A DNA stretch of 64,000 bases from an uncultured Gammaproteobacteria bacterium. Lineage in GTDB: Bacteria; Patescibacteriota; Microgenomatia; Levybacterales; UBA12049. The translations under genes and the position numbers were made by a program. Positions 3,647 through 44,906 of the stretch are shown piece by piece. Below the pieces are notes generated by a model. The model was given only the letters and a program-made list of their open reading frames with translations. It did not search any database and was not told the DNA's origin. The DNA lies in assembly GCA_964507055.1 (NCBI GenBank), contig CAZDOJ010000001.1, positions 1,105,313-1,169,312 of the forward strand, written 5' to 3'. Every line of letters starts with the position of its first letter. Position 1 is the stretch's first letter.

Positions 3647-4633
3647 TTATAACAGTCCCATTTTATCACGAACTTCTCGGACTGTTGCTTCTGCGAGGGA
3701 TTTTGCTTTTTCATTTCCTTCTTGAATGATTCTATCAACTTCATGTGGATTATCTTCAAAGTGTTTTCGTTTTTCTTGGAATGGTTGTAATTCTTTATAA
3801 ACTAATTCTGCTAATTCTTTTTTCATGTCACTGTAACGAATTCTTTTCTCTCGATAATCAATGACATACTTTACAAATACTTCTTTCTCAGCAAATAATT
3901 TGAAAATTGTAAACAAATTACCGACTCCACCATCGTTTGGGACAGCACCACCTTCTGTGCCACTGTCTGTTGGAATCTTTGCGATTTTACTTTTGATAGT
4001 TTCGAAATCATCAGTTAAATTAATATAACTTCCTTCAACAGATTTACTCATTTTTCCTTCTCCTAAAAGTGAAGGGATATATTCACCTGCTGTTTTAAAA
4101 CGCTGCGGTTCAGGAAAATCTGTACCATATTCCTGATTCATTTTACGAGCAATTTCTCGTGCAACTTCTATGTGCGGTTCCTGATCAATTCCGACAGGGA
4201 CGCTGTCTGCTTTATAGATCAAAATATCTGCTGCCATCAGAATTGGATAATTAAGAAGTGCCATAGTTGCACTATCTGGATGTTGTTTTACTTTATCCTT
4301 AAATGTTGGCAGATGCTGCATTCGAGCGATTGTCTGTACACTGGAGAAATAGAATGCTAATTCAGCATGAGGACTTTGTGCTTGCTGAAAAAGAATACTT
4401 TTTTCGGGATCAAGTCCAGCAGCTAGATAATCAATAATTATTTCGCGGCGATCTTTGCGTAACGCTTCAACGTCATATGGTGTAGTTAGCGTATGTAAAT
4501 CTGCAACCATGTAGAGCGTTTCATAATTTGGATCATCTTGTAACGCAAGCATACCTTTAATCGCACCTAAATAATTACCGAGATGGAGGCGACCCGTTGC
4601 ACGAATTCCTGATAATACACGTTTCTTATTCAT
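3647..4633 (-). CDS. trpS: tryptophan--tRNA ligase
   Basis: 'KRVLSGIRATGRLHLGNYLG' HIGH-like region and 'KMSKS' motif; ORF track start 4681, but the internal Met 'MNKKRVLSG' at 4633 matches typical TrpRS N-termini. Confidence 0.85.
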   Translation of the reverse strand: MNKKRVLSGIRATGRLHLGNYLGAIKGMLALQDDPNYETLYMVADLHTLTTPYDVEALRKDRREIIIDYLAAGLDPEKSILFQQAQSPHAELAFYFSSVQTIARMQHLPTFKDKVKQHPDSATMALLNYPILMAADILIYKADSVPVGIDQEPHIEVAREIARKMNQEYGTDFPEPQRFKTAGEYIPSLLGEGKMSKSVEGSYINLTDDFETIKSKIAKIPTDSGTEGGAVPNDGGVGNLFTIFKLFAEKEVFVKYVIDYREKRIRYSDMKKELAELVYKELQPFQEKRKHFEDNPHEVDRIIQEGNEKAKSLAEATVREVRDKMGLL

Positions 4634-9746: not shown

Positions 9747-12131
9747 TTAGAGTCTAGCACGTGTAGCAATTTCTGTTTCGATAACATCCACTGCTCTTCC
9801 GTACTTCAATCGTGAAAGTTCGCGAACTAATTCAGCGACGCGTGGATTTTCCATAGCCTTTTCCTTCTCTACATCCTTTGTCGTGTCCAGAGAGAACGGA
9901 CGAACAGGTTCACCATTAACGATGGTTCGCATATAACAATTGTATTTGTCGACGTTAATTAAGTCCTGTTCACTAAAGATCGGTTGGAATTCATGTTGGA
10001 GATAATTTGCATCAGTCACACCGATACGAAACGACGCAATTGTACCGACGTTACCGAAGATAGCGTTCTTAATTTCCTCTTCCATCTGTCCAATGAACTG
10101 ATTCGCCACAATAAGATTTAAACGGTATTTTCGAGCTTCAGAAAGGATTTGGGCGAAATCAGGTGTGGCAAAGTTCTGAAACTCGTCCACATACAGGAAG
10201 AAATCTTTTCGTTGGTCTTTATCGAGAATATCCTGACGACTCATCGCAGCTACCAAAATTTTTGGAACAAGAATCAATCCTAAGAAACTCGCATTTTCTT
10301 CACCAATTTTACCTTTGGAAAGATTAATCAGGAGAATCTTTTGCTCATCCATAACTTTACGGAAATTGAAGGCACTATCTGATTGACCGATGATATTACG
10401 AATCATTTTATTGGTGACGAAACGACCAAACTTGGAAGTAATATAATCCAAAACTTCAGATTTGTGGAAGTCAGAAGTCTGTGCAATTTGGTCGGTCCAA
10501 TACCTTCTGATGATAGGATCTTCTACTTTAGGCAAAATCTCTTGCACAAAAGCCTGGTCTGTCAAAACACGCATAACTTCAATGAACGTACTGCCCTTTT
10601 CGTACATAACTGTAAGCATCGCGTTACGAACAGCATGTTCAAAACGTGGACCAATAATACCAGTTTTGTTAGGATCAAATAACTTGTACATCAAACCGAT
10701 AATTGAGTTTACGACAAAGTGCTTTTGTTGTTCGGTTTCAGCTTCAAGCATGTTAAAACCCATCGGACGATCAGTATCTGACGGGTCAAAGAGGATAACG
10801 TCTTCGGCACGCTTTGGTGGCATCATCTTCATGATATCTTCAACCAAATCTCCATGAGGATCAATAACCGCAACCCCTTCACCATTCATAATATCCTGCA
10901 TGATCATACTCTTTAGATATTCTGTTTTACCTGTACCAGTTTTTCCAATGATATATGTATGACGACGTCTATCATCACGTTCTACAAAGACCGGTCGAGA
11001 AATACCACGAAAAGTACTTCGTCCAAGGAATAAACCAGTCGTTGGAAGGTTTGATGGAGCAGCCGAACGCTTCGCATTGAGCCAATGAATACCAGGTGTT
11101 GAAATCGATTTATTTGGAAAATGAAAAATACTAGCAAGTTCCTCAGTCGTAAGCACAGATGTCTGACGGAACATTGGGAAATAACGATAAATAAAATCAT
11201 TCATGAAGAGTCCACGATGGAATAGTTCGCGTTTTTTAAATGCATTACTGCCATTAAATTGTCCAAAGGCTCCAAAAATATTTGAGAGATGAGCTTTTGC
11301 GGCTTGTTCTGTTTTCGCACATACGACAATGCGTATGGTTGTATGAAAGCCAGCTTTGCTTAACTTATTTTCCACAGCTTCCATTTCTTTTGCATCTGTT
11401 TTGTAGCTAGCTTTATCGGGATTTGACTCATTTTTTTTCAATCCTGCAAGGTACGTCCTCCCGGCTTTTACCCATTTTGCATCTGCGGGTTTGATAAGGA
11501 TTTGTATTGCAGCACCTTCACCCTCCTGCATCTTTGCAAGAACTGAGGTAATAGAAGACATCGGATCTACAGCGAGATCCTTATACACTTTAATTGGCAT
11601 ATAATCACTTGATTTAAGGTCTGTATAAAGAAAAGCAACCTTGCCATCATCAGAAAAAATATTGTATTCTGTCCCGATTACTCCACCTTGACGCTGCTTT
11701 GCAGCAGGATCATTAACTGGAACAATATCAGCTTCAGGATATGCACCATTAATTTGTTTTTCCACAAAGTCACGATACTTCTGTGGCACATGGATGTAGT
11801 AACGAATATCACCCGGTAATCCTACAATTTCAAAAGAAAGATGTGGTTGCGGCTTAAAGTTTTCGAACTTCCCACTTCCTCGAATTGAAGTAAGACTTGC
11901 AAACATCTGTTGTGCAGCATCGATCTTTGTATCATTATCTCGTGGCACTGTCACTTGTAATAATACTGAATTTAATGAATCAGCTTCACGAGTATGATGA
12001 CGCAAGTAAAGAACGACAGCCCAGTAGAGTCCCCAAAAGATCGCCGCAATTGCTCCGAGAAGAAGCACTATACCTATAAGTGAAGCCATCGCGACTAAAA
12101 CATTATCTACAGTAAGTATTGGTAATTCCAT
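9747..12131 (-). CDS. FtsK/TraG/VirD4-family coupling-protein-like ATPase with N-terminal membrane anchor
   Basis: 794 aa; N-terminal double TM; Walker A 'IIGKTGTGKTEYL'; Walker B 'FFLYVDEFQNF' followed by 'ARKYRLNLIVANQFIGQM' (T4CP-like R..G..Q motif). Confidence 0.5.
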   Translation of the reverse strand: MELPILTVDNVLVAMASLIGIVLLLGAIAAIFWGLYWAVVLYLRHHTREADSLNSVLLQVTVPRDNDTKIDAAQQMFASLTSIRGSGKFENFKPQPHLSFEIVGLPGDIRYYIHVPQKYRDFVEKQINGAYPEADIVPVNDPAAKQRQGGVIGTEYNIFSDDGKVAFLYTDLKSSDYMPIKVYKDLAVDPMSSITSVLAKMQEGEGAAIQILIKPADAKWVKAGRTYLAGLKKNESNPDKASYKTDAKEMEAVENKLSKAGFHTTIRIVVCAKTEQAAKAHLSNIFGAFGQFNGSNAFKKRELFHRGLFMNDFIYRYFPMFRQTSVLTTEELASIFHFPNKSISTPGIHWLNAKRSAAPSNLPTTGLFLGRSTFRGISRPVFVERDDRRRHTYIIGKTGTGKTEYLKSMIMQDIMNGEGVAVIDPHGDLVEDIMKMMPPKRAEDVILFDPSDTDRPMGFNMLEAETEQQKHFVVNSIIGLMYKLFDPNKTGIIGPRFEHAVRNAMLTVMYEKGSTFIEVMRVLTDQAFVQEILPKVEDPIIRRYWTDQIAQTSDFHKSEVLDYITSKFGRFVTNKMIRNIIGQSDSAFNFRKVMDEQKILLINLSKGKIGEENASFLGLILVPKILVAAMSRQDILDKDQRKDFFLYVDEFQNFATPDFAQILSEARKYRLNLIVANQFIGQMEEEIKNAIFGNVGTIASFRIGVTDANYLQHEFQPIFSEQDLINVDKYNCYMRTIVNGEPVRPFSLDTTKDVEKEKAMENPRVAELVRELSRLKYGRAVDVIETEIATRARL

Positions 12132-12803: not shown

Positions 12804-12941
12804 CTATTCTTCTCCAGGTTTCCACCCACAATCAGGACAGGCGGTTAAGACACCACACTGAATCTGAGCTACAGCGTTATCATCCGCTTCCCATTTACAT
12901 TGCTTACACACGATTTTATAGCAAACCTTACAATCTTCCAT
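12804..12941 (-). CDS. small zinc-ribbon protein (45 aa), translationally coupled to upstream gene
   Basis: Hand-translated: MEDCKVCYKIVCKQCKWEADDNAVAQIQCGVLTACPDCGWKPGEE; three CxxC pairs; ATG 1 nt after TAA of 12943..14331; below ORF-track length cutoff. Confidence 0.45.
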   Translation of the reverse strand: MEDCKVCYKIVCKQCKWEADDNAVAQIQCGVLTACPDCGWKPGEE

Positions 12942-12942
12942 A

Positions 12943-14331
12943 TTAATCACAACTAATTCCTGATTCTTCTGCAAATGCTTCTTTCGTCAGACCGCACCCT
13001 GGGCAACAATTTCCAACAGGCCCATCAGCTCGGAAAGAACATTTTGGACATGAGAACCATTCTTGTGCTTCAGGAGTCCCTTTCCCAAATTGTGAGACAC
13101 TATTAAGCATCATATCAACATTACTCCCACCCAATTTTATACCTGCTGATTTACCACAACCAACTTCTCTCTCTTCAGCCTGTTCATGACCATGACGTTC
13201 TGCAAGAGCTGCCATATATCGATATGCATCTGTATTAAGCTTTTGGCTTTTTGCATCAAAAACAATGTGCTCACCACTCTCTGGAACAAAATTTCGTTCA
13301 GGACTTAAAAGCATGATGTTATATGCACGTGCAATTGCTTCAGGATCAAAATCAGGTTTTGTTATTTGATCAAGCAAATAGAGCATTCCAGGAGTATATA
13401 TCCTTTGCAGTTTTTTCCATTCTTCTTCTGTTGTCGCTTCTACATCCATCGCAAAATTATCATTAAAAATAGTATCAATAGTTTGTCCTTCCTGAGCTGG
13501 TATAAGAAATGGATTCTCAAGATACCAAGCATCAAGTGGAATAGACGTTCCTGTTTGTTGCTCGCGTTGTTCTTTGCGTTCAAAAATTGTTGGATCAAGT
13601 CGCTGTGAAATTGAAGCATAATCATCAGTGTCAATTGAAGATGCAAAGCGTACGTAATTGATAACGCGTTCTCCGGTCTGCAGATTTTCATCCACTTGAT
13701 AACCGTCTATAAACTTATGCGAATAAGGAGAATCTTCAATCTGACTCTGTGGAGAAATTACCATAAAAGCTGTTCCAAGAGGTGTTTCTGGATCAGATAG
13801 TATACTTTGAATCTTTGCAAAACCCTTAACTTCAGCTTTCTCTCGTGCTAAATCTTTGGATCCTTGTTTTTCTCGATAGGCAACTCCTCGCTCGAGCATT
13901 GCTTCATATGGCTCTTCAGGAAAAGCATCATTTCTTATTTTTCCTTCTGCATCGAGGATTAATTGTAATCGACTCTCCTGTGTATTATGTCGTTCTCGAA
14001 GTGCAGTAGTAATTTGCTGTAATTCATTTTTTCGGAAACCTTCACGTTGTTCATCAGTTTCTAATCGTTCAAAATTCCACCTTGCAAGAACAGGATTATA
14101 GTTGTCTAATTCGCCTGAAAGGTTCTCTGCGAGACCAAGTGTGCTATTCCATTTCTGTTGCAGTTTTTTTACCTCATCTAATTCTCTATCTTTCTCTGTC
14201 AATACAGAATCCACTCGTGTTATTGCTGCATCCACCCGTGCAGAGATACCCTTTACAGGATTAAAAAATCGCTGGGAAGAAATGAAATCCTCTGGTCTCG
14301 TATGTTGATGTCCTCTTTGTCTTTCAAGCAT
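12943..14331 (-). CDS. hypothetical cytoplasmic protein with C-terminal zinc ribbon, cobalamin-riboswitch-associated
   Basis: 462 aa, no TM, C-terminal 'CPKCSF...NCCPGCG'; AUG directly preceded by SD-sequestering hairpin of a cobalamin-riboswitch-like leader. Confidence 0.5.
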   Translation of the reverse strand: MLERQRGHQHTRPEDFISSQRFFNPVKGISARVDAAITRVDSVLTEKDRELDEVKKLQQKWNSTLGLAENLSGELDNYNPVLARWNFERLETDEQREGFRKNELQQITTALRERHNTQESRLQLILDAEGKIRNDAFPEEPYEAMLERGVAYREKQGSKDLAREKAEVKGFAKIQSILSDPETPLGTAFMVISPQSQIEDSPYSHKFIDGYQVDENLQTGERVINYVRFASSIDTDDYASISQRLDPTIFERKEQREQQTGTSIPLDAWYLENPFLIPAQEGQTIDTIFNDNFAMDVEATTEEEWKKLQRIYTPGMLYLLDQITKPDFDPEAIARAYNIMLLSPERNFVPESGEHIVFDAKSQKLNTDAYRYMAALAERHGHEQAEEREVGCGKSAGIKLGGSNVDMMLNSVSQFGKGTPEAQEWFSCPKCSFRADGPVGNCCPGCGLTKEAFAEESGISCD

Positions 14332-14470
14332 AAAAAAACTCCTCGCTTCGGAGGAGTTGCATAAAAAAATATGCTTCTGCTCCGGAAGTCTTTAATAGGG
14401 CTCTGGCTTGATTTGAATCAAATCTTACAGTTGCGGCACAGCTTAGGATTTCCACCTAATTCACCCAAAT
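14332..14470 (-). promoter_or_regulatory. cobalamin riboswitch-like leader (aptamer plus SD-sequestering/terminator hairpin) upstream of 462-aa ORF
   Basis: mRNA sense contains GGUGGAAAUCC, GCUGUGCCGCAACUGUAAG and AAGCCAG (partial B12 box); 3' hairpin CUCCUCGCUUCGGAGGAG + U6 immediately before AUG, GAGGAG being the SD. Confidence 0.65.
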
Positions 14471-14473
14471 AAA

Positions 14474-15016
14474 CTATCTTTTAATCCACTTAATTTCTTT
14501 TTGTTTTTCTTGATGATTAATATATCGTGCGAGTGTAAAGAGAAGATCAGAAAGCCGATTGAGGTAAATAAGAATCGCTTGATCGACTTCTTCTTTTTCA
14601 GTTAAGGTGACAACCCTTCGCTCTGCACGACGAGCAAATGTTCGCGAAACATGCAGTAACGAACCTGATCTGCTTCCTCCAGGCAAAATAAAATTTTTCA
14701 GTTCTGGCAGCTTTTTTGTTAGTGAGTCGATCAGTGTCTCAAATTCTTTTGGACGATTTTCAAGACCAATTACAGGAATTGGATGCGGAGTCGCAAGCGT
14801 TGAACCAATTGCAAAGAGATCATGTTGGATTGTTTCGAGCTCTTTAGCAACACTCTTATATTTACTCTTTGGAAGGAATGCGAGGGTTTGACCGATAACG
14901 CTATTGAGCTCATCAACAGCAGCATAGGTTTCAACTCGCTCGTGAGATTTTGAGACTCGAGTACCATCAAAAAGTGAGGTTGTTCCTTTGTCACCTGTTC
15001 GTGTATATATTGGCAT
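14474..15016 (-). CDS. PduO-type ATP:cob(I)alamin adenosyltransferase
   Basis: 'MPIYTRTGDKGTTSLFDG...ETYAAVDELNSVIG' canonical PduO/MMAB N-terminus. Confidence 0.85.
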   Translation of the reverse strand: MPIYTRTGDKGTTSLFDGTRVSKSHERVETYAAVDELNSVIGQTLAFLPKSKYKSVAKELETIQHDLFAIGSTLATPHPIPVIGLENRPKEFETLIDSLTKKLPELKNFILPGGSRSGSLLHVSRTFARRAERRVVTLTEKEEVDQAILIYLNRLSDLLFTLARYINHQEKQKEIKWIKR

Positions 15017-15158
15017 AAAAAAATCCTTCCATGGCAGAAGGATTCATAAAAACTCCTGCTCGGGATAAAATGTTTTCTGGCTTTCCCCGACTAATCGGGA
15101 GTACAGTTGCGGCACAGCCACGGAATTTCACCGTGATTTCCTCTTAAATTGTCTAAAC
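15017..15158 (-). promoter_or_regulatory. cobalamin riboswitch-like leader upstream of PduO-type adenosyltransferase gene
   Basis: mRNA sense contains CGGUGAAAUUCCG, GCUGUGCCGCAACUGUA, AAGCCAG; 3' hairpin AAUCCUUCUGCCAUGGAAGGAUU + U7 ending 0 nt before AUG, sequestering SD-like GAAGGA. Confidence 0.65.
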
Positions 15159-15160
15159 TT

Positions 15161-17623
15161 CTAGCATTCAGAATAGCCACATGCGTAGCACTTCTTACAA
15201 CCTTCTTCGTAAGCAAAACTTCCTGATCCACATTCTGGGCAAATATCAAAGAGCGATGTTGATGAACTTGATGCTGCGACACCTGTTTGTGGAAGCGTCA
15301 ATTGGTTTGCAACAACTTCTTCTTCCCCAGTTACGATAGCATCAGCTTTGATTGGAACTGCGACACCATTGGTATGTCCATTTCCATTAGCAAGTGCTGC
15401 TTGTACTGGTGTGTACGATGCCTTGTCTTCAACTTTTCCATTAACTCGGAATTCACAATGACGAGCAAGTACCTTGGAAATTGCATCTGGAAGAGAACGA
15501 ACTCTGTTCTCTCCAAATCCACTTGAGCGGCTACCTCCTATGCCAGCAAGTTCTGACACAATCTCGCGGACCCGCTCCCGGGCAGGAACCGGACTGTGGA
15601 TACGTAACACAAAGGATACCATCCGGCCGAGCGCGTCCGCGAGGGCCATTAAATCAGAACCGCTTTTCCCGTGATTAATGAAGACTTCAAAGAGGTCGCC
15701 CTTTTCGTCCTGATTGATGGTGACATATAACTTCCCTGTTGGACTATCTGCTTTGTATGTAACGCCAGTTAACATCATTGGTCGTGGAACTCGTGGTGTT
15801 ACAGGAATAACTGGTTCTTGAGCGACTGGTACTTCGACTTTTGCTTCTTTCTTCTCTTCTCTCTGTAACACTCCGGTTCGTGAACCATCTCGGAAGTATG
15901 TAACTCCTTTAAGACCATTATCATATGCTGACATGTAAAGATTCTTTACATCTTCAACTGTGTGATGATTTGGAGCATTTACCGTCTTTGAAATTGATGA
16001 GTCAATATATTCCTGAGCAACAGTTTGAATCTTTACATGATCTTCAGGAGTCAAATCGTTTGCTCCGACAAAGTACTCTGGTCGTTCTTCATCAGGGTGA
16101 GAATCTTTCCATTCACCATAGAGTCCGTGATATACCATCTGTTTACCCAAACGACCGTTGTGAGAATATTCAAATTCATATACTGGCTCGACACCACTTG
16201 AAACTGCTGCGACAAGACTTGTTGTCCCGGTTGGAGCAATTGTCAAAAGTACTGCATTTCGAATTCCCTGCTTGTAGATCTTCTCACGAATATCTTTTGG
16301 TAATGCTTGGATATGATATCCCTTTTGATATTGGTCTCGCTCGTATTTTAAGAATGAACCTTTTTCTTTTGCAATATTTGCAGATGCTATATAAGCATTA
16401 TCACGAAGTGCTGCAAAAATTTTCTTTGAAATCTTTTCTGATTCTTCTGAGCCATACCGAACTTTCATTTTGATGAAGGTGTCAGCGATACCCATGATTC
16501 CCAAACCAGTGCGGCGGATATCTTTTGCTACTTTTTCATTTTCTTTAAAGAAGTAATAGGTATCGTCAATAACATTGTCTAGGAATCGCATTGCAACTTG
16601 CACATCTTTTCCAAAAGACTCGTAATCAAACCAGCCTGCTTTATCATTTCTCAAGTCATCATCTTTGACATATGCGGCCAAATTCATTGCTCCTAAGTTA
16701 CATACAGCCCAACCTCCAAGTGGTTGCTCACCGCAAGGGTTTGTTGCAAGTAATTTCTCAAAATACCATGTATTTGATCGTTTGTTGGAGCGGTCTAAGA
16801 AGTGGAGACCTGGTTCAGCTGATTTCCAAGCTGCTGTACAAATAAGATCCCACAGTTCTTTTGCTTGAACTGTCTTGTACACTTTTACTTTACCGCCATT
16901 TGCTTTCCAACTCCTTAAATCTCCATCCCAATCTCTATCATAATTTGGGTCACTAAGATCTGGATAGACAAGATCCCAAGGTTTATCTGCTTTTACAGCT
17001 TCCATAAAGTCATCTGAGACACAGACTGAAAGATTTGCTCCGTTGATCTTCGTCAAATCTTCTTTGACAGTGATAAATTCCTCAATATCTGGATGCCAAT
17101 CCCAAAGCATAAGCATAGTAGCTCCGCGTCGTGATCCTCCTTGTTGGACAATATCATGTGTTGCTACTGAGAAAAGGGTTGCCCAATTAATAGGTCCTGA
17201 TGAGGTTCCGTTTACTTTTTTGACGCGTGATCCACGAGGACGAAGTGATGAGAGATTTAATCCGACTCCACCAGCTCGGGATTGGATCTCGATAAGTTGA
17301 CCGAGTGATTCAAGAATCCCATGTCGTGAATCTTTAGGCGATGGTATAACGAAACAATTGAAGTATGTTACTTGATAACCTGTTCCTGCTCCTGAAAGGA
17401 TACGACCACCCGGAACAAATTTGAAATCCTCGAGGACTTTGTAGAATTCTCCTTCCCATTTCGCTTGCTGTGATTTCTTTTCTTGCTTTGCAATTCCTTT
17501 TGCAACGCGTCTCCACATTTCTTCAGGTGAGTGTTCAAGAAGTTCTCCTTCAACACCTTTCAATGCATATCTATCTAAAAATACTTTTTGTCTTACGCCT
17601 TCAAATTTCATAATGTTATTCAA
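15161..17623 (-). CDS. nrdJ: ribonucleoside-diphosphate/triphosphate reductase, class II (adenosylcobalamin-dependent)
   Basis: 820 aa; 'NPCGEQPLGGWAVCNLGAMNL' active-site region, 'TIAPTGTTSL', C-terminal CxxC..CxxC zinc ribbon; B12 context (PduO gene, riboswitches, nrdR). Confidence 0.75.
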   Translation of the reverse strand: MNNIMKFEGVRQKVFLDRYALKGVEGELLEHSPEEMWRRVAKGIAKQEKKSQQAKWEGEFYKVLEDFKFVPGGRILSGAGTGYQVTYFNCFVIPSPKDSRHGILESLGQLIEIQSRAGGVGLNLSSLRPRGSRVKKVNGTSSGPINWATLFSVATHDIVQQGGSRRGATMLMLWDWHPDIEEFITVKEDLTKINGANLSVCVSDDFMEAVKADKPWDLVYPDLSDPNYDRDWDGDLRSWKANGGKVKVYKTVQAKELWDLICTAAWKSAEPGLHFLDRSNKRSNTWYFEKLLATNPCGEQPLGGWAVCNLGAMNLAAYVKDDDLRNDKAGWFDYESFGKDVQVAMRFLDNVIDDTYYFFKENEKVAKDIRRTGLGIMGIADTFIKMKVRYGSEESEKISKKIFAALRDNAYIASANIAKEKGSFLKYERDQYQKGYHIQALPKDIREKIYKQGIRNAVLLTIAPTGTTSLVAAVSSGVEPVYEFEYSHNGRLGKQMVYHGLYGEWKDSHPDEERPEYFVGANDLTPEDHVKIQTVAQEYIDSSISKTVNAPNHHTVEDVKNLYMSAYDNGLKGVTYFRDGSRTGVLQREEKKEAKVEVPVAQEPVIPVTPRVPRPMMLTGVTYKADSPTGKLYVTINQDEKGDLFEVFINHGKSGSDLMALADALGRMVSFVLRIHSPVPARERVREIVSELAGIGGSRSSGFGENRVRSLPDAISKVLARHCEFRVNGKVEDKASYTPVQAALANGNGHTNGVAVPIKADAIVTGEEEVVANQLTLPQTGVAASSSSTSLFDICPECGSGSFAYEEGCKKCYACGYSEC

Positions 17624-18188
17624 TCGTGTTTATAGAATTATTGTTTTGCTTATACTGACAATTATCGTTTTGATAATAATTATTTTGTATATGATACTCT
17701 GTCTTAATTTCTTTATTGTTTGAGTTAATGCTTATACCAAAAAGTTGCAAAGTATAAGTTGCCCCCAAAACTAAGCCTAATGCACTTATTAGAACTTTTT
17801 TATTCTTAATACAAAAGTCTACTAATCTCTTGAAAAAGTTTGTATTCGTAGATGCTGTTTGGCCATGACTAACAGGATCTCCATTCTTATAATTATAATA
17901 CTCATCAGCATTTTTAAACCCAGTACTAAGATCAAAATATCTAAGCTTCTTTTCAAATTTCTGAAGCTGAAAACTTTCATATCCAGAATATACGTTTGAT
18001 TCAAATTTCTTATAAAACTTCGTAAACGATGCTTCTTCGAACGATGTTAAAGTTGCATCTGAAGCCACTACAATACCATCTACGGCAAATTGAGTTGTAG
18101 AAACCCATTTACTTGAACCTGCACCTAGAACAAGATTAATATCTGTGTTTAAAAGTTCGTCTTTAAATAATGGGTTTATTACTGGCAT
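17616..18188 (-). CDS. hypothetical protein, N/Y/Q-rich with C-terminal hydrophobic helix
   Basis: 190 aa; start overlaps nrdJ by 8 nt, stop-start overlap with next gene; no motif recognised. Confidence 0.35.
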   Translation of the reverse strand: MPVINPLFKDELLNTDINLVLGAGSSKWVSTTQFAVDGIVVASDATLTSFEEASFTKFYKKFESNVYSGYESFQLQKFEKKLRYFDLSTGFKNADEYYNYKNGDPVSHGQTASTNTNFFKRLVDFCIKNKKVLISALGLVLGATYTLQLFGISINSNNKEIKTEYHIQNNYYQNDNCQYKQNNNSINTIE

Positions 18189-18189
18189 A

Positions 18190-18597
18190 CTAATTTGCTA
18201 ACTTAATATTTTGATTTTTTTTCTGCTGAACATGGATCACCTTGATTTCAGTGGAGCCAACTTCAACTTTACCATCATTGATAACAAACTTGTAATCTCC
18301 TTCAGATTCAAAACCTAAGTTAACAAACTCAATCAATAGATTATTTCGACCATTTCCGCTTGTAACTGTGGTTATATCACTAGCATTTATTATTTTATTA
18401 TCATGCTCTAGCTTGATCGTTAAATTATAACTTTTATCCGGAGATCCTGATAATGTAGCAACTAGAAATGCTCTTGGAACACCGCCCGGAAATTGAGATA
18501 CCCTTATTTCATCAAAGATTCCATTAATGCTTAACTTATTCTCTCGTGAAAGAGATGCATATTCACATAAAGCTATAATTTGTGTTGTTAATTTCAT
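18190..18597 (-). CDS. hypothetical protein
   Basis: 135 aa; overlaps nrdR stop by 4 nt (coupled). Confidence 0.35.
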   Translation of the reverse strand: MKLTTQIIALCEYASLSRENKLSINGIFDEIRVSQFPGGVPRAFLVATLSGSPDKSYNLTIKLEHDNKIINASDITTVTSGNGRNNLLIEFVNLGFESEGDYKFVINDGKVEVGSTEIKVIHVQQKKNQNIKLAN

Positions 18598-19073
18598 AAT
18601 GTTGGTTTAGTAATTTTTCTTTTTGCTCCTGATAATTCTTTGACTTCTTTTTCAAAGTCTCCTGCTTCAACAAAGCGTTTGAATACACTCGCAAAACGAA
18701 TATACGCTACTTTATCTAACTGCTTTAATCGAGCTGCAACTATCTCCCCTATTAATTCACTTTTAACTTCAAGTGAGCCCATTGTTCGTAATTCTCGGCT
18801 CACTTCGTTAATGATTTTCTCAATCACACTTGCCGGAACTACGGTTTTCTCACATGATTTTAAAAGTCCAGTTTTTAGCTTCTCACGGTTAAATTGCTCT
18901 CTGCGTCCGTCCCGTTTGATTACAATCAGTTGTACATGTTCAACTCGTTCGTACGTCGTAAATCGCTTGCAACATGCCAGGCAAGCTCTTCTCCTACGAA
19001 TTGTGTCCATGTCCGAGCTATCGCGTGTCTCTACAACCTCTGAATCCTTGCTTCCACAGTACGGGCAGTGCAT
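18594..19073 (-). CDS. nrdR: transcriptional repressor NrdR
   Basis: 'MHCPYCGSKDSEVVETRDSSDMDTIRRRRACLACCKRFTTYERVE' zinc ribbon + ATP-cone. Confidence 0.9.
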   Translation of the reverse strand: MHCPYCGSKDSEVVETRDSSDMDTIRRRRACLACCKRFTTYERVEHVQLIVIKRDGRREQFNREKLKTGLLKSCEKTVVPASVIEKIINEVSRELRTMGSLEVKSELIGEIVAARLKQLDKVAYIRFASVFKRFVEAGDFEKEVKELSGAKRKITKPTL

Positions 19074-19283
19074 ATAACCTTTCTATTAAAGAGGATCTTA
19101 CATGCCTTTAAGATGACTCTTCAATAACATATCTAGTGCTATAAAAACGATACACCACTACATCTATAGCGTCAACTATAAAGAACTGTATCAAATTAAT
19201 CACTAGCTTCAACTGTATACATTTATATCATCGTTTTCTTACACTGGTTTTAGGAGAAATTAATAATTCTTATAAATGGGGAT

Positions 19284-40145: not shown

Positions 40146-40560
40146 GGGGATGAATCGATTCGACGGGAAAAGTTCTTTTAAAACTGCAAGCCGACGATGA
40201 CACATAGTCGCAAAACGAGGTCAAAAAACAAATGCTAAATCTAGCATTCAAGCCTTAAGAGCTGAAAAGGACCGCATTCTTGCGGAACTTAACGGCCTTT
40301 ACGGCGGCCAACAAGCTTACGCACTAGCTGCTTAAGCTTTAAAGCCTGTTCATATAAGTCTTCCCTCGCCGGGACTGTATGGGCATAAAAATAGGTGGGG
40401 AAAACCTTAGAGGAATGGCTCTACCTTTATTGTATTTAGAGCATATACTTTGTTATTCCGGTCAACAGGACACGGCAAAGTGAATAAAAATAGTTGACTA
40501 CGCTTGTAGACGTTTTAAGAAATTTTTTTCACACTCCGGTTCACTGCCGGACATCTCCAC
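40146..40560 (+). ncRNA. ssrA: tmRNA (ssrA)
   Basis: 5' 'GGGGATGAATCGATTCGACGGG' matches tmRNA tRNA-like 5' end; 3' T-arm TCCGG-TTCACTG-CCGGA and acceptor CATCTCC pairing with GGGGATG incl. G3:U wobble; internal ORF ends 'GCTTACGCACTAGCTGCTTAA' (..AYALAA*); immediately downstream of smpB. Confidence 0.8.
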
Positions 40561-40605
40561 AAAAAAACCTCACTCTTCAGTAGGGTTTTCTGTTACTATA
40601 AATAC

Positions 40606-42419: not shown

Positions 42420-42506
42420 CGGAGGGAACAGGATTCGAACCTGCGGTAGGTTTAACCCCACGACTCCTTAGCAAGGAGTTACCATAAACCACTCGGACAT
42501 CCCTCC
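42420..42506 (-). tRNA. tRNA-Ser (anticodon GCU)
   Basis: minus-strand sequence GGAGGGATGTCCGAGTGG...ACTCC-TTGCTAA-GGAGT..long variable arm..GCAGG-TTCGAAT-CCTGT-TCCCTCC-G; class II tRNA. Confidence 0.8.
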
Positions 42507-42528
42507 TCAGTTCAAATGTTATTTTTTG

Positions 42529-42615
42529 CGGAGGAGATGAGATTCGAACTCATGGACCCTTTGACAGGTCGGAGGTTTAGTAAACCTCTGCACTCGGCCA
42601 CTATGCGACTCCTCC
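42529..42615 (-). tRNA. tRNA-Ser-like class II tRNA with apparent anticodon ACU (A34)
   Basis: GGAGGAG-TC-GCAT..GAGGT-TTACTAA-ACCTC-long variable arm-ATGAG-TTCGAAT-CTCAT-CTCCTCC-G; body highly similar to neighbouring tRNA-Ser(UGA); anticodon loop reads T-T-A-C-T-A-A. Confidence 0.65.
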
Positions 42616-42636
42616 AGATAGGTATTATGTAAGATG

Positions 42637-42723
42637 CGGAGAGAGTGGGATTCGAACCCACGGAAGGCTTGCACCCTCAGATGTTTTCAAGACATCCGCA
42701 CTCGACCACTATGCGATCTCTCC
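42637..42723 (-). tRNA. tRNA-Ser (anticodon UGA)
   Basis: GGAGAGA..GATGT-CTTGAAA-ACATC..long variable arm..GTGGG-TTCGAAT-CCCAC-TCTCTCC-G. Confidence 0.8.
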
Positions 42724-42826
42724 ATAACCTCGTCCAAGTATTCTACCAAAAATTCTATCTAGAAGCTAATAAGAAAATATTTTAGCATTTCTTGACTTCC
42801 TTTTTCTAATCAGTTAGAGTGAAAAT

Positions 42827-43387
42827 ATGGCCACTGCCCCAGCGAAACCCACGGAACAAATTGAAAATATCGATGAGTTAATAGGTGACGAACATATTGT
42901 AAAAACATTCATGTCTTGGCACGCACCTGGTCGGCCATACAGAAAACGATCGAAAGAATATTACATAAATAGCCTCCTTATTACTATTGCCATCGAAATT
43001 ATTCTTTTTCTTTTCTCTCAGTATCTTCTTATGCTCGTCGTTTTTTCACTTGCGTTCTTAGCTTTTGCACTCGCTATTGTTCCACCACATAAATTCTATT
43101 ACAGCATAAGTACTGAGGGAATACGTATTGAAGACAATTACTTCATTTGGGATGAACTCTATGATTTCTATTTTATGAAGCGGCAAGGAGTAGATGTGCT
43201 CCATGTTCGAACGAAGGCATATTTCCCAGGAGAATTGACGATAGTGCTTGGAGATATTCCTGTGGAGCAAGTACGTAAAGTTTTACTCATGTTTCTTCCA
43301 TACCGTGAATACGTCGAACCAACATTTATGGAAAAAGCAGGAGATTGGCTGGAAAGAAATTTCCCATTGGAAAGAACTACGCAATAA
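42827..43387 (+). CDS. hypothetical membrane protein
   Basis: 186 aa, two central TM helices. Confidence 0.3.
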   Translation: MATAPAKPTEQIENIDELIGDEHIVKTFMSWHAPGRPYRKRSKEYYINSLLITIAIEIILFLFSQYLLMLVVFSLAFLAFALAIVPPHKFYYSISTEGIRIEDNYFIWDELYDFYFMKRQGVDVLHVRTKAYFPGELTIVLGDIPVEQVRKVLLMFLPYREYVEPTFMEKAGDWLERNFPLERTTQ

Positions 43388-43440
43388 ATTCATTATTAGT
43401 TGCCTCAAAAACCCGTATAAGGTAAAATACACGTTACTAT

Positions 43441-43514
43441 GCACCCGTAGCTTAGCTGGATAGAGCACAACATTGCGGATGTTGAGGTCGGAAGTTCGAA
43501 TCTTCTCGGGTGTA
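43441..43514 (+). tRNA. tRNA-Arg (anticodon GCG)
   Basis: 74 nt: GCACCCG-TA-GCTT-AGCTGGATA-GAGC-A-CAACA-TTGCGGA-TGTTG-AGGTC-GGAAG-TTCGAAT-CTTCT-CGGGTGT-A. Confidence 0.7.
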
Positions 43515-43574
43515 CTTAGGTCGAAAGGATCCCCTTTTCCATGGGATTCACCGTTATAATAACGGATATTCTTG

Positions 43575-43664
43575 GAGGGATCGCATAGTGGTCGAGTGCG
43601 GCGGTTTCGAAAACCGCTGTCCTGATTTTCTTCGGGACCGAGGGTTCGAATCCCTCTCCCTCCG
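43575..43664 (+). tRNA. tRNA-Ser (anticodon CGA)
   Basis: GGAGGGA..GCGGT-TTCGAAA-ACCGC..long variable arm..GAGGG-TTCGAAT-CCCTC-TCCCTCC-G. Confidence 0.8.
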
Positions 43665-43672
43665 CAAATAGC

Positions 43673-44707
43673 TTATTTCTTCTTACTCATCTTGCCAAAA
43701 AGTTGTAATTCCCAGATAAAGAGAAGCATGAGGGCGATTATTGCAATTACTGAGGCTTTCCAGATACCACGAGCAACTTTCTTCACCTTCATCTCTTCCA
43801 AGCGTTTTGACCATCTTGCTAATTTTGCTCGATAATCATTTTTTGTTTGCTCGTCCATGTCTGAAGTTTCTATATCAACAGCTCCTCTTTTTAATTGGGC
43901 TTGAGCATCATTTACAGTACTATCTGCCTCCTCAGTACTAATTTCTTCTTTATCTTTGGGATCCTCGTTCTCTTTTTCTAAAGGAAATCCACTTAATAAT
44001 TCTTCTTTTTGTTCAGCATTAAGATCAGACATTTCCTCGACTACAGCTTGGACTTCATCTCTGGATAAACCACTCAAAGCAGCTTTTGTTGCCTGCATTT
44101 CCTCAGCACTCAAGCGTTCTTTCCCGGCTATAATTTTTGCTGCTGCTGTCATTTTTCGAAGATTTTCCTTATCTTTCTCTGGAACTTCAACCGAGTTAAC
44201 TAATTTATCTACAGCCTGCTCTTCACTATTTTTCGATTCATCAACTTCTTCTTTAGATTGGGGTTGGTAATCAATTACCTCTTGAATCTTTCCATCACTG
44301 CTTTCATCTAAGCTATTTAACAACTCAGTAAAAGCTGTTCTTGCTTGATCATTTTGCTGAATTTGATGCGTTCTTTGTGTAACTTTTGCAATATCTTGTT
44401 TTTCTTCATCAGATAATTCTTCTAGATATGTAGCACTATACACCTCACCAATAGATGTTTTGAGTTTTTCTTTTGATTCATCGGTAAAATTCCCCTCTCC
44501 ATCCACGGGAGTACTTTTAACCTCCCACAGAAATTCTTTTACCTGCTCAGCAATATTTGCTTTGGCAAAAGCTTCTCTCTTTTCCTGATCTGGCACAGAA
44601 GCCTCATAGTGGGCTTGTTTTTCCTGTTCTCGTGCCTGTTCTTGGTTATCTCCTGACTCCATATCTTTCCTTTCTCCTATCCTCCAATATTTAGCCTGAA
44701 TTGTCAA
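43673..44707 (-). CDS. hypothetical acidic coiled-coil protein with C-terminal membrane anchor
   Basis: 344 aa, E/K/D/Q-rich, predicted helical; C-terminal TM 'VIAIIALMLLFIWELQLF'. Confidence 0.35.
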   Translation of the reverse strand: MTIQAKYWRIGERKDMESGDNQEQAREQEKQAHYEASVPDQEKREAFAKANIAEQVKEFLWEVKSTPVDGEGNFTDESKEKLKTSIGEVYSATYLEELSDEEKQDIAKVTQRTHQIQQNDQARTAFTELLNSLDESSDGKIQEVIDYQPQSKEEVDESKNSEEQAVDKLVNSVEVPEKDKENLRKMTAAAKIIAGKERLSAEEMQATKAALSGLSRDEVQAVVEEMSDLNAEQKEELLSGFPLEKENEDPKDKEEISTEEADSTVNDAQAQLKRGAVDIETSDMDEQTKNDYRAKLARWSKRLEEMKVKKVARGIWKASVIAIIALMLLFIWELQLFGKMSKKK

Positions 44708-44822
44708 GCTAGAATCCTATCAAACTTGGATACCTATAAAGAATAGGTTATAATTACAAAATCATTGTAATAGAACTCTGCCTTGTACACTTGATATTTT
44801 CCTTATAAAAAAATTACGAATT

Positions 44823-44906
44823 GGAGGAGTCGGATAGCGGTCTATTCCACACGCTTGGAAAGCGTGCGAGCGTAAGCTCACGCGGGTTCGAATCCCGCCT
44901 CCTCCG
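44823..44906 (+). tRNA. tRNA-Ser (anticodon GGA)
   Basis: GGAGGAG..CACGC-TTGGAAA-GCGTG..long variable arm..GCGGG-TTCGAAT-CCCGC-CTCCTCC-G. Confidence 0.75.

Follow-up and report, generated by a model that had tools for sequence, protein, structure and literature searches.

A probable compact supra-operon for B12-dependent deoxynucleotide synthesis, with two cobalamin riboswitches inside one gene string

In this work, we analysed a 64-kb stretch of DNA (the window) from a candidate-phylum (Levybacteria-like) bacterium, where a minus-strand string runs in the order nrdR, DUF6941, ORF190, nrdJ, RS1, pduO, RS2, ORF462 and ORF45, RS1 and RS2 being cobalamin (Cbl) riboswitches. Its features are as follows.

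19147–19175, minus strand: candidate sigma-70-like nrdR promoter (−35 TTGACG at 19175–19170, 17-nt spacer, −10 TATCGT at 19152–19147)
19155–19170, minus strand: candidate NrdR box 1, GCTATAGATGTAGTGG, within the −35/−10 spacer
19124–19139, minus strand: candidate NrdR box 2, GCACTAGATATGTTAT, over the likely transcription start
18594–19073, minus strand: nrdR, Zn-ribbon/ATP-cone repressor (Pfam PF22811, Zn_ribbon_NrdR; PF03477, ATP-cone)
18190–18597, minus strand: DUF6941 protein, 135 aa (PF22091, E = 2e-17), its start overlapping the nrdR stop
17616–18188, minus strand: ORF190, lineage-specific, with a hydrophobic helix near the C terminus
15161–17611, minus strand: nrdJ, class II (adenosylcobalamin-dependent) ribonucleotide reductase (PF00317, PF02867, PF12637)
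15054–15146, minus strand: RS1, type A riboswitch (aptamer 15146–15066 plus P13 hairpin)
15017–15045, minus strand: predicted RS1 terminator, GAAUCCUUCUGCCAUGGAAGGAUU followed by U7 (terminator scan: 11 pairs, 15045–15021)
14474–15016, minus strand: pduO, PduO-type ATP:cob(I)alamin adenosyltransferase (PF01923, E = 1.3e-59)
14374–14466, minus strand: RS2, type B riboswitch (aptamer 14466–14396 plus P13 hairpin)
14332–14358, minus strand: predicted RS2 terminator, AACUCCUCCGAAGCGAGGAGUU followed by U7 (terminator scan: 14358–14337)
12943–14331, minus strand: ORF462, uncharacterised cytoplasmic protein, no family match
12804–12941, minus strand: ORF45, small Cys-rich protein (CxxC...CxxC...CxxC), 1 nt after ORF462
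12763–12137, minus strand: ORF208, co-directional, downstream of ORF45
12131–9747, minus strand: type-IV coupling-protein-like ATPase (Pfam TrwB_AAD_bind, T4SS-DNA_transf)

Profile matches and coordinates bear out the gene content and order that an earlier note on this DNA had claimed from nrdR to ORF45, with nrdR scoring 182.5 bits against TIGR00244 (cut-off 124.65), nrdJ 578 bits against TIGR02504 (cut-off 400) and pduO 193 bits against TIGR00636 (cut-off 108). The nrdJ product ends in a Cys-rich Zn-ribbon tail; the TTG at 17623 that a mechanical ORF list gives as the nrdJ start was rejected in favour of the ATG at 17611. The overlapping or near-zero spacers described by the note are found at most junctions (0–4 nt), as nrdR and DUF6941 overlap by 4 nt and the gaps are 1 nt from DUF6941 to ORF190, 4 nt from ORF190 to nrdJ and 1 nt from ORF462 to ORF45, but not between nrdJ and pduO (144 nt) or pduO and ORF462 (142 nt), where a riboswitch and its terminator take up the whole spacer. 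The genes are co-directional from 19073 to 12804 as stated, but the string extends further, to at least 22517 on one side and to 9747 on the other. No terminator is predicted by the scan in the 40-nt gap between ORF45 and ORF208, and both ORF208 and the ATPase gene are kept downstream in relatives, with variable genes inserted after ORF45; it is uncertain whether they share a transcript with ORF45.

Between nrdR and nrdJ, DUF6941 occurs in six of the six contexts in which we saw it (the window and the related loci L009, L028, L030, L041 and L042), and the closest relative, L004, is without it. ORF190 has no match in Pfam, NCBIfam, PHROG or PADLOC, nor by tblastn among relatives; the same slot holds variable ORFs of 80–177 aa in L009, L028 and L030, and its GC content is 0.28–0.32 compared to roughly 0.40 in its flanks.

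The note placed NrdR at the head of an operon that it probably represses, and the region upstream of nrdR agrees with this. The candidate promoter, 75–100 nt upstream of the gene, matches 9 of 12 consensus positions in a consensus scan and recurs as TTGACR and TAYnAT at the same site in 25 related loci, which suggests that it is active. A search for NrdR boxes found two, separated by a 15-bp linker, in an architecture that fits the published definition of key positions and the canonical linker of 15–16 bp (PMC13584703). Each box has five of six key positions (A6, A8, T9, T11 and G13 in box 1, with C4 replaced by A), and all six are present in box 1 of L006 and L008 (ACCCAAGATCTAGTGG) and, at the same site, in box 2 of L009 (ACACTATATTTAGTGC) and L014. 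By key positions alone such pairs are at least as common in this AT-rich window as chance predicts (7 compared to 4.4 in shuffles), and a 16-mer consensus search allowing up to three mismatches recovered neither box; the two-box architecture at the promoter is conserved in the same 25 loci. NrdR thus probably binds both boxes and, given that one lies within the promoter spacer and the other over the start, would repress nrdR to nrdJ.

RS1 begins 8–15 nt past the nrdJ stop, with no terminator in between. Its aptamer comprises a closing helix, P4 (15135–15119), the core GCUGUGCCGCAACUGU, a short P6 hairpin (15101–15085) and the B12 box AAAGCCAGAAAAC (15084–15072), followed by a P13 hairpin, UCC-CGAGCA-GGA, at 15065–15054. 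RS2 shares the core and has P3 (UGGG/CCUA), P4 (14459–14443), a P6 hairpin (14424–14410), the B12 box AAGCCAGAGCCC and P13 (CUUC-CGGAGCA-GAAG) at 14388–14374. The extent of its Rfam match (14506–14380) would carry it into pduO; this was rejected, as the aptamer begins about 8 nt past the pduO stop. The terminator scan found no other terminator from that stop to RS2, and an Rfam search of the rest of the window gave no further Cbl-like element.

Neither element is found at its Rfam gathering threshold: RS1 scores 31.5 bits against AdoCbl-II (RF01689; gathering score 36.5; match 15160–15070) and RS2 28.1 bits against Cobalamin (RF00174; gathering score 31.5). Degenerate B12 riboswitches or accidental look-alikes, devoid of function, could score in this way; the RS1 shortfall, however, is due to its inserted P6 hairpin, and positional orthologues exceed the threshold, at 46.9 (L004) and 52.2 bits (L008) for RS1 and 40.1 bits (L015), all with RF01689, for RS2. 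Two further RS2 orthologues reach 34.6 bits (L004) and 42.9 bits (L011; RF01482, gathering score 50). Each varying helix shows strong covariation: across 18 RS1-type sequences 94.8% of cells are paired, compared to 31–46% when the alignment is slid, with 76 double-change cells, and across 18 RS2-type sequences 94.4%, compared to 30–46%, with 38 double-change cells; in both, 0 of 500 shuffles did as well. All 38 instances have an unvarying 14-nt core, the aligned riboswitches share the core GUGCCGC(A/U)ACUGU with a B12 box AGYCAG, and in 33 loci the elements sit exactly in front of B12-related genes. The look-alike explanation, to which we give almost no credence, is thus effectively refuted, and the above-threshold orthologues and covariation establish both RS1 and RS2 as genuine riboswitches that probably bind a corrinoid, in keeping with the note's description of them as riboswitch-like. 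Its 'two tandem' elements inside the operon is a looser description, as the whole of pduO lies between them and each is equipped with a separate expression platform.

Each predicted terminator abuts the ATG of the next gene, and its 3′ arm is a Shine–Dalgarno sequence (GGAAGGA before pduO, GAGGAG before ORF462). At RS1, an antiterminator could form between GCAGGAG (15059–15053) and CUUCUGC in the terminator 5′ arm (−8.2 kcal/mol for the RNA cut before the 3′ arm). At RS2, whose terminator has z = −3.2 against shuffles, antiterminator and terminator folds are nearly isoenergetic (−19.5 and −19.3 kcal/mol), and L13 and the terminator loop have changed in a compensatory manner, CGGAG/CUCCG compared to CCGAG/CUCGG, which supports the antiterminator. 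L5 and L13 are nearly invariant, with three Watson–Crick pairs (UGC/GCA) discernible by eye.

Many class II Cbl riboswitches control translation via a kissing loop. The two elements might likewise work chiefly at the level of translation, hiding the Shine–Dalgarno sequence, with hairpin and U-run incidental, a proposal that leans on published class descriptions (PMC7367189) and on the fact that the two 3′ arms, 7 nt before the ATGs, are the only Shine–Dalgarno-like sequences there. We consider this improbable, as a GC-rich stem of 8–11 pairs with U7 behind it is the canonical form of an intrinsic terminator, the antiterminator shows covariation, and most of the 38 instances have the hairpin with a run of U6–8 directly before the start codon (by a crude regular expression). 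The simplest reading is dual action, termination together with Shine–Dalgarno burial, from which control of translation differs in emphasis only.

Loss of the gene order in relatives was named by the note as grounds for refuting its reading; we found the order kept in 33 Microgenomates loci, all of which (33/33) carry at least one Cbl riboswitch, before pduO in 19, after it in 20 and at both sites in 6. In L022, L028, L035 and L031, pduO follows nrdJ by 3–18 nt and is itself followed by a type B riboswitch, which makes the riboswitch after pduO operon-internal there. In L006, L013, L034 and L036, genes for a DUF4430 protein and a DUF6580 membrane protein lie between the type A riboswitch site and pduO, and the DUF4430 protein is transcobalamin-like, with a weak match to transcobalamin-1.

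The geometry of the locus and the arrangement in relatives suggest that transcription from the nrdR promoter continues through RS1 and RS2. The same genes could instead form three abutting, independent units, driven by the nrdR promoter (nrdR to nrdJ) and by internal promoters within the 3′ ends of nrdJ (RS1 and pduO) and of pduO (RS2, ORF462 and ORF45), so that each riboswitch would be an ordinary 5′ leader and nrdJ would also make use of the RS1 terminator by an accident of packing. Relatives provide some precedent: in L006 an opposite-strand gene separates nrdJ from the riboswitch, with TTGCAA-17-TATTCT right before P1; in L013 the gap is 1.2 kb and holds TTGTAA-17-TATTCT; and ORF462 homologues in L011 and L018 have their own riboswitch away from nrdJ and pduO. 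In the window, TTGTAA-19-TATTCT occurs in the last nrdJ codons, ending 7 nt before the stop at a distance to the aptamer similar to that of the L006 and L013 promoters, and makes an internal promoter possible. Independent units would also account for RS2, which looks redundant if RS1 already terminates, unless termination is leaky, a second promoter exists or the thresholds differ. Against them, the window hexamers have a 19-nt spacer, encode part of the conserved GCKKCYACGYSEC tail, are not kept at the DNA level in L008, L020 and L038, and a consensus scan finds no sigma-70-like site with at least 9 of 12 positions upstream of either riboswitch; moreover, only 3–7 nt separate nrdJ and pduO in L022, L028 and L035. 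We therefore regard three units as rather unlikely, though compatible with read-through, as the lack of a terminator between the nrdR promoter and RS1 implies that RS1 gates read-through with or without extra promoters.

Taken together, we consider it likely that the locus forms a compact supra-operon devoted to B12-dependent deoxynucleotide synthesis, with two regulatory layers of known kinds. Gene identities, covarying RNA structures, terminator and antiterminator alternatives, operator conservation and synteny are computed; ligand binding, NrdR binding, read-through from the nrdR promoter and the function of ORF462 are what we infer. In the first layer, high dATP would lead NrdR to repress nrdR, DUF6941, ORF190 and nrdJ. 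In the second, polymerase leaving nrdJ would run into RS1 without a prior terminator, and the P13 hairpin would compete with the antiterminator for the terminator 5′ arm. With corrinoid bound, the aptamer may hold L13 through an L5–L13 kissing loop, by analogy with known riboswitches, so that P13 would stay closed, the terminator would form and transcription would stop just before the pduO ATG, with the terminator stem enclosing the Shine–Dalgarno sequence; if no corrinoid is bound, the antiterminator would form and pduO would be transcribed and translated. RS2 would apply the same logic directly after pduO, gating ORF462 and ORF45. Three tiers would result: nrdR to nrdJ would answer to NrdR only, pduO would need low B12 at RS1, and ORF462 and ORF45 would need low B12 at RS2 and, for transcripts from the nrdR promoter, also at RS1. 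Two conditional terminators in series might multiply repression or set different thresholds.

The note called this an unusual regulatory layout, which is too strong. Streptomyces provides the textbook example of an nrdR–nrdJ operon with NrdR boxes, and B12 riboswitches before adenosyltransferase and salvage genes are routine. As in Streptomyces coelicolor nrdRJ, nrdR comes first and is co-directional with nrdJ (the genes overlap in L004 and L007), and two partially palindromic 16-bp boxes with a 15-bp linker overlap the promoter; unlike there, DUF6941 and ORF190 are wedged between the two genes and the operon runs past nrdJ into a riboswitch. The B12 riboswitch of Streptomyces acts on the alternative class Ia nrdABS operon and is not known to control genes downstream of nrdJ. 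The regulatory parts are thus all of known kinds (Streptomyces nrdRJ, Cbl-II-like riboswitches), and the less common trait is that, along one gene string, no terminators other than those of the riboswitches separate one module from the next.

Both elements resemble class II cobalamin riboswitches (RF01689 AdoCbl-II and env8-type Cbl-IIa and Cbl-IIb, clan CL00101; class definitions in PMC7367189) in their four-way junction P3–P6 with core and B12 box, the absence of a P2 arm, a P6 capped by a loop or short hairpin, and a downstream P13 whose conserved loop is available for an L5–L13 kissing loop. They differ in falling under curated thresholds, with three Rfam models matching type B about equally weakly, and in a platform that combines terminator and Shine–Dalgarno sequestrator and ends at the start codon; the continuous closing helix is closer to Cbl-IIb (AdoCbl) than to Cbl-IIa, as a resemblance only. 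Like tandem riboswitches, RS1 and RS2 are complete switches of one ligand class in series in one transcription direction, which could sharpen or multiply the response, but the 543-nt pduO lies between them instead of both sharing one leader, and either is absent in some relatives; the intervening gene implies nested expression tiers and not one more-digital switch.

As in the salvage operons of B12 auxotrophs (uptake plus BtuR/PduO), a riboswitch precedes pduO, and in relatives it precedes the genes for transcobalamin-like DUF4430, the DUF6580 membrane protein and PduO. Here, by contrast, the module is fused head-to-tail to the operon of the consumer enzyme, uptake genes are absent at this site, and an additional gene, ORF462, is riboswitch-gated. 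Like many B12 auxotrophs (PMC8123684), the organism appears to retain just the adenosyltransferase step locally.

The locus points to two new protein families linked to B12 and ribonucleotide reductase, DUF6941 and ORF462. The latter has no match in Pfam, NCBIfam, PHROG or PADLOC and combines a disordered N terminus, long helices, a PAS-like alpha/beta core, a GCGxS motif and a C-terminal Zn ribbon ending in Cys-Asp. Its AF2 model has a pLDDT of 75 (85 in the core), and fold searches gave only sub-threshold PAS/LOV-like matches. Homologues form 634 representative clusters at E ≤ 1e-3, with invariant E113, R163, S193, C392 and ribbon cysteines. ORF462 is thus a large unannotated family that almost always stands behind a B12 riboswitch, in 33 of 33 syntenic loci and two of three displaced copies (L011 and L018). 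From this context, ORF462 most likely has a role tied to PduO when B12 is scarce, for instance in processing, reducing or delivering corrinoids. ORF45, itself without a family match, directly follows an ORF462-family gene in 20 relatives, with 46–84% identity by tblastn.

Patescibacteria (candidate phyla) are uncultured and metabolically minimal, and to our knowledge little is known of how they secure and ration cofactors. In the cluster described here, a Levybacteria-like lineage joins a B12-dependent reductase, a nucleotide-sensing repressor, a B12-activating enzyme and predicted B12-sensing RNAs in one conserved gene string. From its sequence and that of its relatives, we read the cluster as a variant conserved in this lineage: nrdR heads an nrdJ operon, and the only terminators predicted downstream are those of two B12 riboswitches, which would gate pduO and an unannotated gene. 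The earlier note had called this regulatory layout unusual, which is too strong: every regulatory part is of a known kind, and what the lineage keeps is a variant combination of them. Our literature searches on CPR/Patescibacteria found no description of an NrdR-headed layout with internal riboswitches.

The genes of the cluster and the models that identify them are as follows.

Genes of the cluster in the window
19073–18594, minus strand: nrdR (TIGR00244, 182.5 bits against a cut-off of 124.65; PF22811, Zn ribbon, and PF03477, ATP-cone)
18597–18190, minus strand: gene for a DUF6941 protein
18188–17616, minus strand: ORF190, unannotated
17611–15161, minus strand: nrdJ (TIGR02504, 578.4 bits against a cut-off of 399.95)
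15016–14474, minus strand: pduO (TIGR00636, 193.4 bits against 108.45; PF01923, 201.6 bits)
14331–12943, minus strand: ORF462, unannotated
12941–12804, minus strand: ORF45, unannotated

NrdR, NrdJ (class II RNR) and PduO (PduO-type adenosyltransferase) all exceed the cut-offs of curated models, and NrdJ scores just under the cut-off of the class I RNR model TIGR02506. Together with Rfam searches in E-value mode, these assignments confirm the gene content, the gene order and the two Cbl elements that the earlier note had read from the sequence. The near-zero spacers that it described hold for four junctions (−4, 1, 4 and 1 nt) and not for nrdJ–pduO (144 nt) and pduO–ORF462 (142 nt), both of which are taken up by RNA elements.

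To place the cluster among its relatives, we fetched loci with ORF462 as the handle and mapped 33 non-redundant ones with tblastn (numbered L004, L006 and so on). By taxonomy they belong to the Microgenomates group of Patescibacteria and come from Levybacteria, Levyibacteriota and Curtissbacteria MAGs. One order, the loss of which would have counted against the earlier note, is kept throughout: GAPDH – kinase-like – DUF5667 – nrdR – (DUF6941) – nrdJ – [riboswitch A] – (DUF4430 – DUF6580) – pduO – [riboswitch B] – ORF462-like – ORF45 – ... – type-IV coupling-protein-like ATPase. Type A riboswitches are present in 19 of these loci, type B in 20, both in 6 and neither in none, so that riboswitch position is evolutionarily fluid. 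The ATPase (9747–12131, minus strand, 794 aa; TrwB_AAD_bind and DUF87, with DUF8128 in the precomputed annotation) is conserved downstream of ORF462 in virtually every relative, a few genes away and with variable genes intervening.

In the window, the type A element (RS1) lies in the nrdJ–pduO spacer and matches AdoCbl-II RF01689 at 15160–15070 with 31.5 bits against a gathering score of 36.5, and the type B element (RS2) lies in the pduO–ORF462 spacer and matches Cobalamin RF00174 at 14506–14380 with 28.1 bits against 31.5; Rfam in E-value mode returned no other Cbl-like match in the 64 kb. Both copies are slightly under the thresholds of clan CL00101, and neither is recovered at the gathering threshold. 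RS1 owes its low score to an inserted P6 hairpin. Its positional orthologues in L004 and L008 are above the Rfam threshold (46.9 and 52.2 bits), and those of RS2 reach 40.1 bits in L015 (above threshold), 34.6 in L004 and, on RF01482, 42.9 in L011. Across the relatives' loci the core GTGCCGC[AT]ACTGT occurs 38 times, always on the coding strand and always at one of two places: before pduO or DUF4430–DUF6580–pduO (type A), or directly after pduO (type B). Both this core, GUGCCGC(A/U)ACUGU in the RNA, and the B12 box AGYCAG are unchanged in all 38 instances.

For covariation, we aligned 18 sequences of each type (alignments A5 for type A and A6 for type B) and counted the named structure against slid controls. 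Pairing is found in 94.8% of type A cells, compared to 31–46% when slid, and none of 500 shuffles reaches the observed value; 14 of 21 pairs change on both sides (76 cells). For type B the figures are 94.4% compared to 30–46%, with 7 of 16 pairs double-changed (38 cells). The covarying helices are P4, the closing helix, P5 (U-A compared to A-U, U38-A46 against A38-U46) and P13, where type A shows UA/GC/CG at 145–156 and CG/UA at 147–154 around a conserved CGAGCA loop. P6 (CUG/CAG) is invariant and thus uninformative, and loops L5 and L13 are almost invariant, hence they carry no covariation signal on the L5–L13 kissing loop. The four-way junction P3–P6 is nevertheless supported by covariation in the 18 + 18 sequences. 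Both types lack a P2 arm, bear just a loop or a short hairpin on P6 and have a P13 hairpin downstream, which matches the class II Cbl riboswitch layout as defined in PMC7367189 (P2 absent, short P6 cap, downstream P13). The two elements, which the earlier note had described as riboswitch-like, are by structure real Cbl-II-like riboswitches for which binding of a corrinoid, either AdoCbl or HOCbl/MeCbl, is predicted, given orthologues above threshold, the covariation and the invariant core.

Two features of the alignments were revised. A 3-bp helix first drawn between pre-core residues and the B12 box crossed P6 and was dropped, becoming P5 plus a 2-bp pseudoknot; the extension of RS2 into the pduO coding region in the Rfam alignment is unsupported by the relatives, in which the stretch is conserved as protein (WIKK and stop). 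In the 2-bp pairing, the two nucleotides just ahead of P5 are matched by those that precede the CAG of the B12 box (A5 columns 36–37 with 88–89, window about 15118–15117 with 15081–15080; A6 columns 29–30 with 68–69 in type B). The pairs covary (GC, AU, UA, GU; CG, GC, AU). Because it crosses P6, this helix counts as a pseudoknot or tertiary pair, and the Rfam secondary structure in the hit alignments does not show it.

Downstream of each aptamer the same order is seen: the P13 hairpin, a GC-rich hairpin and a U7 run touching the ATG of pduO or ORF462.

Expression platforms of the two riboswitches
15065–15054, minus strand: RS1 P13, UCC-CGAGCA-GGA
15045–15017, minus strand: RS1 terminator, 3′ arm GGAAGGA
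14388–14374, minus strand: RS2 P13, CUUC-CGGAGCA-GAAG
14358–14332, minus strand: RS2 terminator, 3′ arm GAGGAG

The terminator 3′ arms are also the sole Shine–Dalgarno-like sequences. For RS2, two folds are nearly isoenergetic: P13 plus terminator (−19.3 kcal/mol), and an antiterminator that joins the 5′ arm and loop of P13 to those of the terminator (−19.5 kcal/mol). RNAalifold recovers this antiterminator from five RS2 orthologues, and it is supported by a compensatory change (CGGAG/CUCCG compared to CCGAG/CUCGG) at positions that are looped in the alternative state. In RS1 nascent RNA cut before the terminator 3′ arm, GCAGGAG pairs with CUUCUGC (−8.2 kcal/mol). The computed folds thus contain what defines an intrinsic-terminator attenuator, that is, a GC-rich hairpin, a U-run and a mutually exclusive antiterminator. 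Corrinoid binding would fix L13 to the aptamer, by analogy through L5–L13 pairing, and P13 would stay closed; the terminator would then form, stopping transcription and burying the ribosome-binding site. This proposed mechanism is the usual one for riboswitches of the class. RS1 and RS2 in series would multiply repression or give pduO and ORF462 different thresholds. The earlier note had described the two elements as tandem: two Cbl elements do stand in one string, but in separate leaders, their cores separated by 676 nt that include the full pduO ORF and a terminator, and they are not a tandem riboswitch in the sense of two aptamers in one 5′ UTR ahead of the same ORF.

The same arrangement bears on whether the string is one operon, which is the weakest part of the interpretation. 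In the window nrdR and nrdJ are co-directional, with 0–4 nt spacers through the two intervening ORFs, and in L004 and L007 they overlap directly. The nrdJ stop lies 8–15 nt from RS1 and the pduO stop about 8 nt from RS2, and since neither gap holds a terminator, a polymerase that starts at the nrdR promoter cannot bypass the riboswitches. The riboswitch modules may nonetheless have extra internal promoters or be separable transcription units. A good promoter sits right ahead of the aptamer in L006, where an opposite-strand gene precedes the riboswitch, and in L013, where a 1.2-kb gap does; displaced ORF462 homologues bring their own riboswitch (L011, L018); and the window itself has a weaker promoter look-alike, TTGTAA-19-TATTCT, within the last nrdJ codons. 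Yet a consensus scan of the window found no sigma-like promoter site of at least 9/12 upstream of RS1 or RS2, and in L022, L028, L035 and L031 pduO follows nrdJ by 3–18 nt and precedes a type B riboswitch, which places that riboswitch inside the operon. We infer that the riboswitches gate read-through transcripts from the nrdR promoter. The interpretation of the earlier note appears largely right. The locus offers a concrete, testable case of riboswitch terminators as internal gates of a polycistron.

At the head of the string, the earlier note held that NrdR probably represses its own operon and pointed to the upstream region as a place for NrdR boxes. An NrdR box is a 16-bp element with key positions C4, A6, A8, T9, T11 and G13, occurring as a partially palindromic pair with a linker of 15–16 bp (PMC13584703). 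By this definition, the nrdR promoter has two predicted boxes, each 16 bp long and partially palindromic, at canonical spacing, with a linker of 15 bp.

Predicted promoter and operator of nrdR
19175–19147, minus strand: nrdR promoter, TTGACG-17-TATCGT, predicted by promoter scan
19170–19155, minus strand: predicted NrdR box 1, GCTATAGATGTAGTGG, 5/6 key positions, within the −35/−10 spacer
19139–19124, minus strand: predicted NrdR box 2, GCACTAGATATGTTAT, 5/6 key positions, at the start region

This placing is as expected for a repressor, and dATP/ATP-dependent binding is predicted. The promoter and the two boxes keep their offsets in 25 loci, and all six key positions are matched at the same sites in L006 and L008 (box 1) and in L009 and L014 (box 2), which provides an NrdR operator consensus for the lineage. 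The Streptomyces nrdRJ operon has the same arrangement of promoter and NrdR boxes. In the AT-rich window, key-position pairs are not unusual (7 compared to 4.4 in shuffles), and we therefore base the operator call on position and phylogenetic conservation; a search with the 16-mer NrdR consensus at up to 3 mismatches returned two unrelated sites only and missed both boxes. Directly upstream of the −35 element, a conserved block TTTGATAYAG...TTAATAG (window about 19176–19215) stands at the same offset in 24 relatives, and many relatives have a second TTGAC about 30 nt further upstream. The block does not match the NrdR box pattern and could serve as a UP element, as a second promoter or as another operator.

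Between nrdR and nrdJ, a DUF6941 (PF22091) gene is present in all six contexts seen, with spacers of 1–25 nt.

DUF6941 genes between nrdR and nrdJ
Window: 18190–18597, minus strand
L009: 6104–6532
L028: 1229–1636
L030: 471–887
L041: 6001–6411
L042: 6001–6426

After it comes either no ORF or, in four of the six, one variable, fast-evolving small ORF, of which ORF190 is the window version. The pair is low in GC in the window, and the closest relative, L004, has neither gene, as a recent foreign insertion would predict; this reading is made less likely by five other genomes in which DUF6941 takes up the same position, with identities similar to those of the flanking genes. Its position ties the family to class II RNR operons and suggests that it is an unrecognised accessory of these in Levybacteria-like genomes. 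As for nrdJ itself, the gene is split by roughly 1 kb in L016 (594–1660), L019 (1329–2389) and L039 (1187–2118), and a JGI contig (3300075153) encodes an nrdJ product with Intein_splicing and LAGLIDADG domains, from which inteins seem common in nrdJ of this lineage; the window copy has none.

In four relatives, a DUF4430 gene and a gene for a DUF6580 membrane protein, both absent from the window, stand between the riboswitch A site and pduO. The DUF4430 protein has a weak match to transcobalamin-1, and the DUF6580 protein only an insignificant one to the membrane-protein chain 6FNP (E value 0.55). DUF4430–DUF6580–pduO would fit a module for B12 uptake and activation. In L036 (3379–5055) this trio starts 55 nt after nrdJ with a type B element after pduO only; the core regex detected no type A riboswitch there, so either a divergent aptamer was overlooked or the uptake genes are unregulated. 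In L027 the type A riboswitch is directly preceded by a tandem heptamer repeat, (GGAATTA)n (about 4010–4060).

ORF462 has no match in Pfam, NCBIfam, PHROGs or PADLOC, and Pfam finds no domain in 51 sampled members of its family, which an exhaustive profile search extends to 634 representative clusters. Invariant in the family are E113, R163, S193, C392 (in a GCGxS motif) and three cysteines of the four-cysteine Zn ribbon at the C-terminus; at least 90% of members also keep its fourth cysteine and the penultimate Cys. The AlphaFold model is confident in its core (pLDDT 85, 75 overall). Foldseek against the PDB gave only sub-threshold PAS/LOV/TagF-like matches (best E value 0.16 with the full model, 0.05 with that of the core domain), and PDB sequence profiles only a generic L37Ae-like Zn ribbon. 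We rejected the reading of ORF462 as a B12-independent RNR, since the protein is too small for one and its predicted model lacks the RNR barrel. A Cbl riboswitch precedes ORF462, directly or through pduO, in 33 of 33 syntenic loci and two of three displaced copies, and where riboswitch B is missing the ORF462-like gene starts 5–21 nt after pduO (L006, L008). This is a strong guilt-by-association assignment of the family to the B12 regulon, and because of this riboswitch/pduO context ORF462 probably serves a B12-scarcity function coupled to adenosylation; its exact function is a guess.

A joint reading, which we consider unlikely as a whole, would make ORF462 the founding example of a large CPR-centred family (634 clusters) with a dedicated B12-starvation function and would add DUF6941 to class II RNR operons as a novel accessory subunit; with two serial riboswitches, the locus would amount to an ‘acquire, activate, use’ B12 module complete in itself, with tiers set by conditional terminators, not promoters. 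Candidate roles for ORF462 would then be a thiol/Zn-ribbon-dependent corrinoid-processing or -reducing partner giving cob(I)alamin to PduO, or a B12-sparing route to deoxynucleotides. Known principles are not overturned by the locus, and its main value lies in the threshold-missed riboswitches (about 38 new, covariation-supported Cbl-II-like sequences, many under current Rfam thresholds) and in two context-linked unknown families.

Zn-ribbon, Cys-rich modules lie at or near the C-termini of three cluster products: NrdJ (15161–15250; ...CPECG...CKKCYACGYSEC), ORF462 (12943–13060; ...CPKC...CPGCG...CD) and ORF45 (12804–12941), almost all of which consists of CxxC motifs. They could conceivably share a role in redox chemistry or partner binding. 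L006 (20764–20967), L009 (17997–18195) and L015 (12608–12797) contain group I intron matches of 68–79 bits, above the gathering score, a few kb past the cluster on its downstream side, and none was found in the corresponding part of the window. Elsewhere in the window, a tmRNA of 417 nt (40146–40562) contains a long stretch inserted with respect to the Rfam model, and five of the six genes in a tRNA cluster (42420–44906) have long variable arms.
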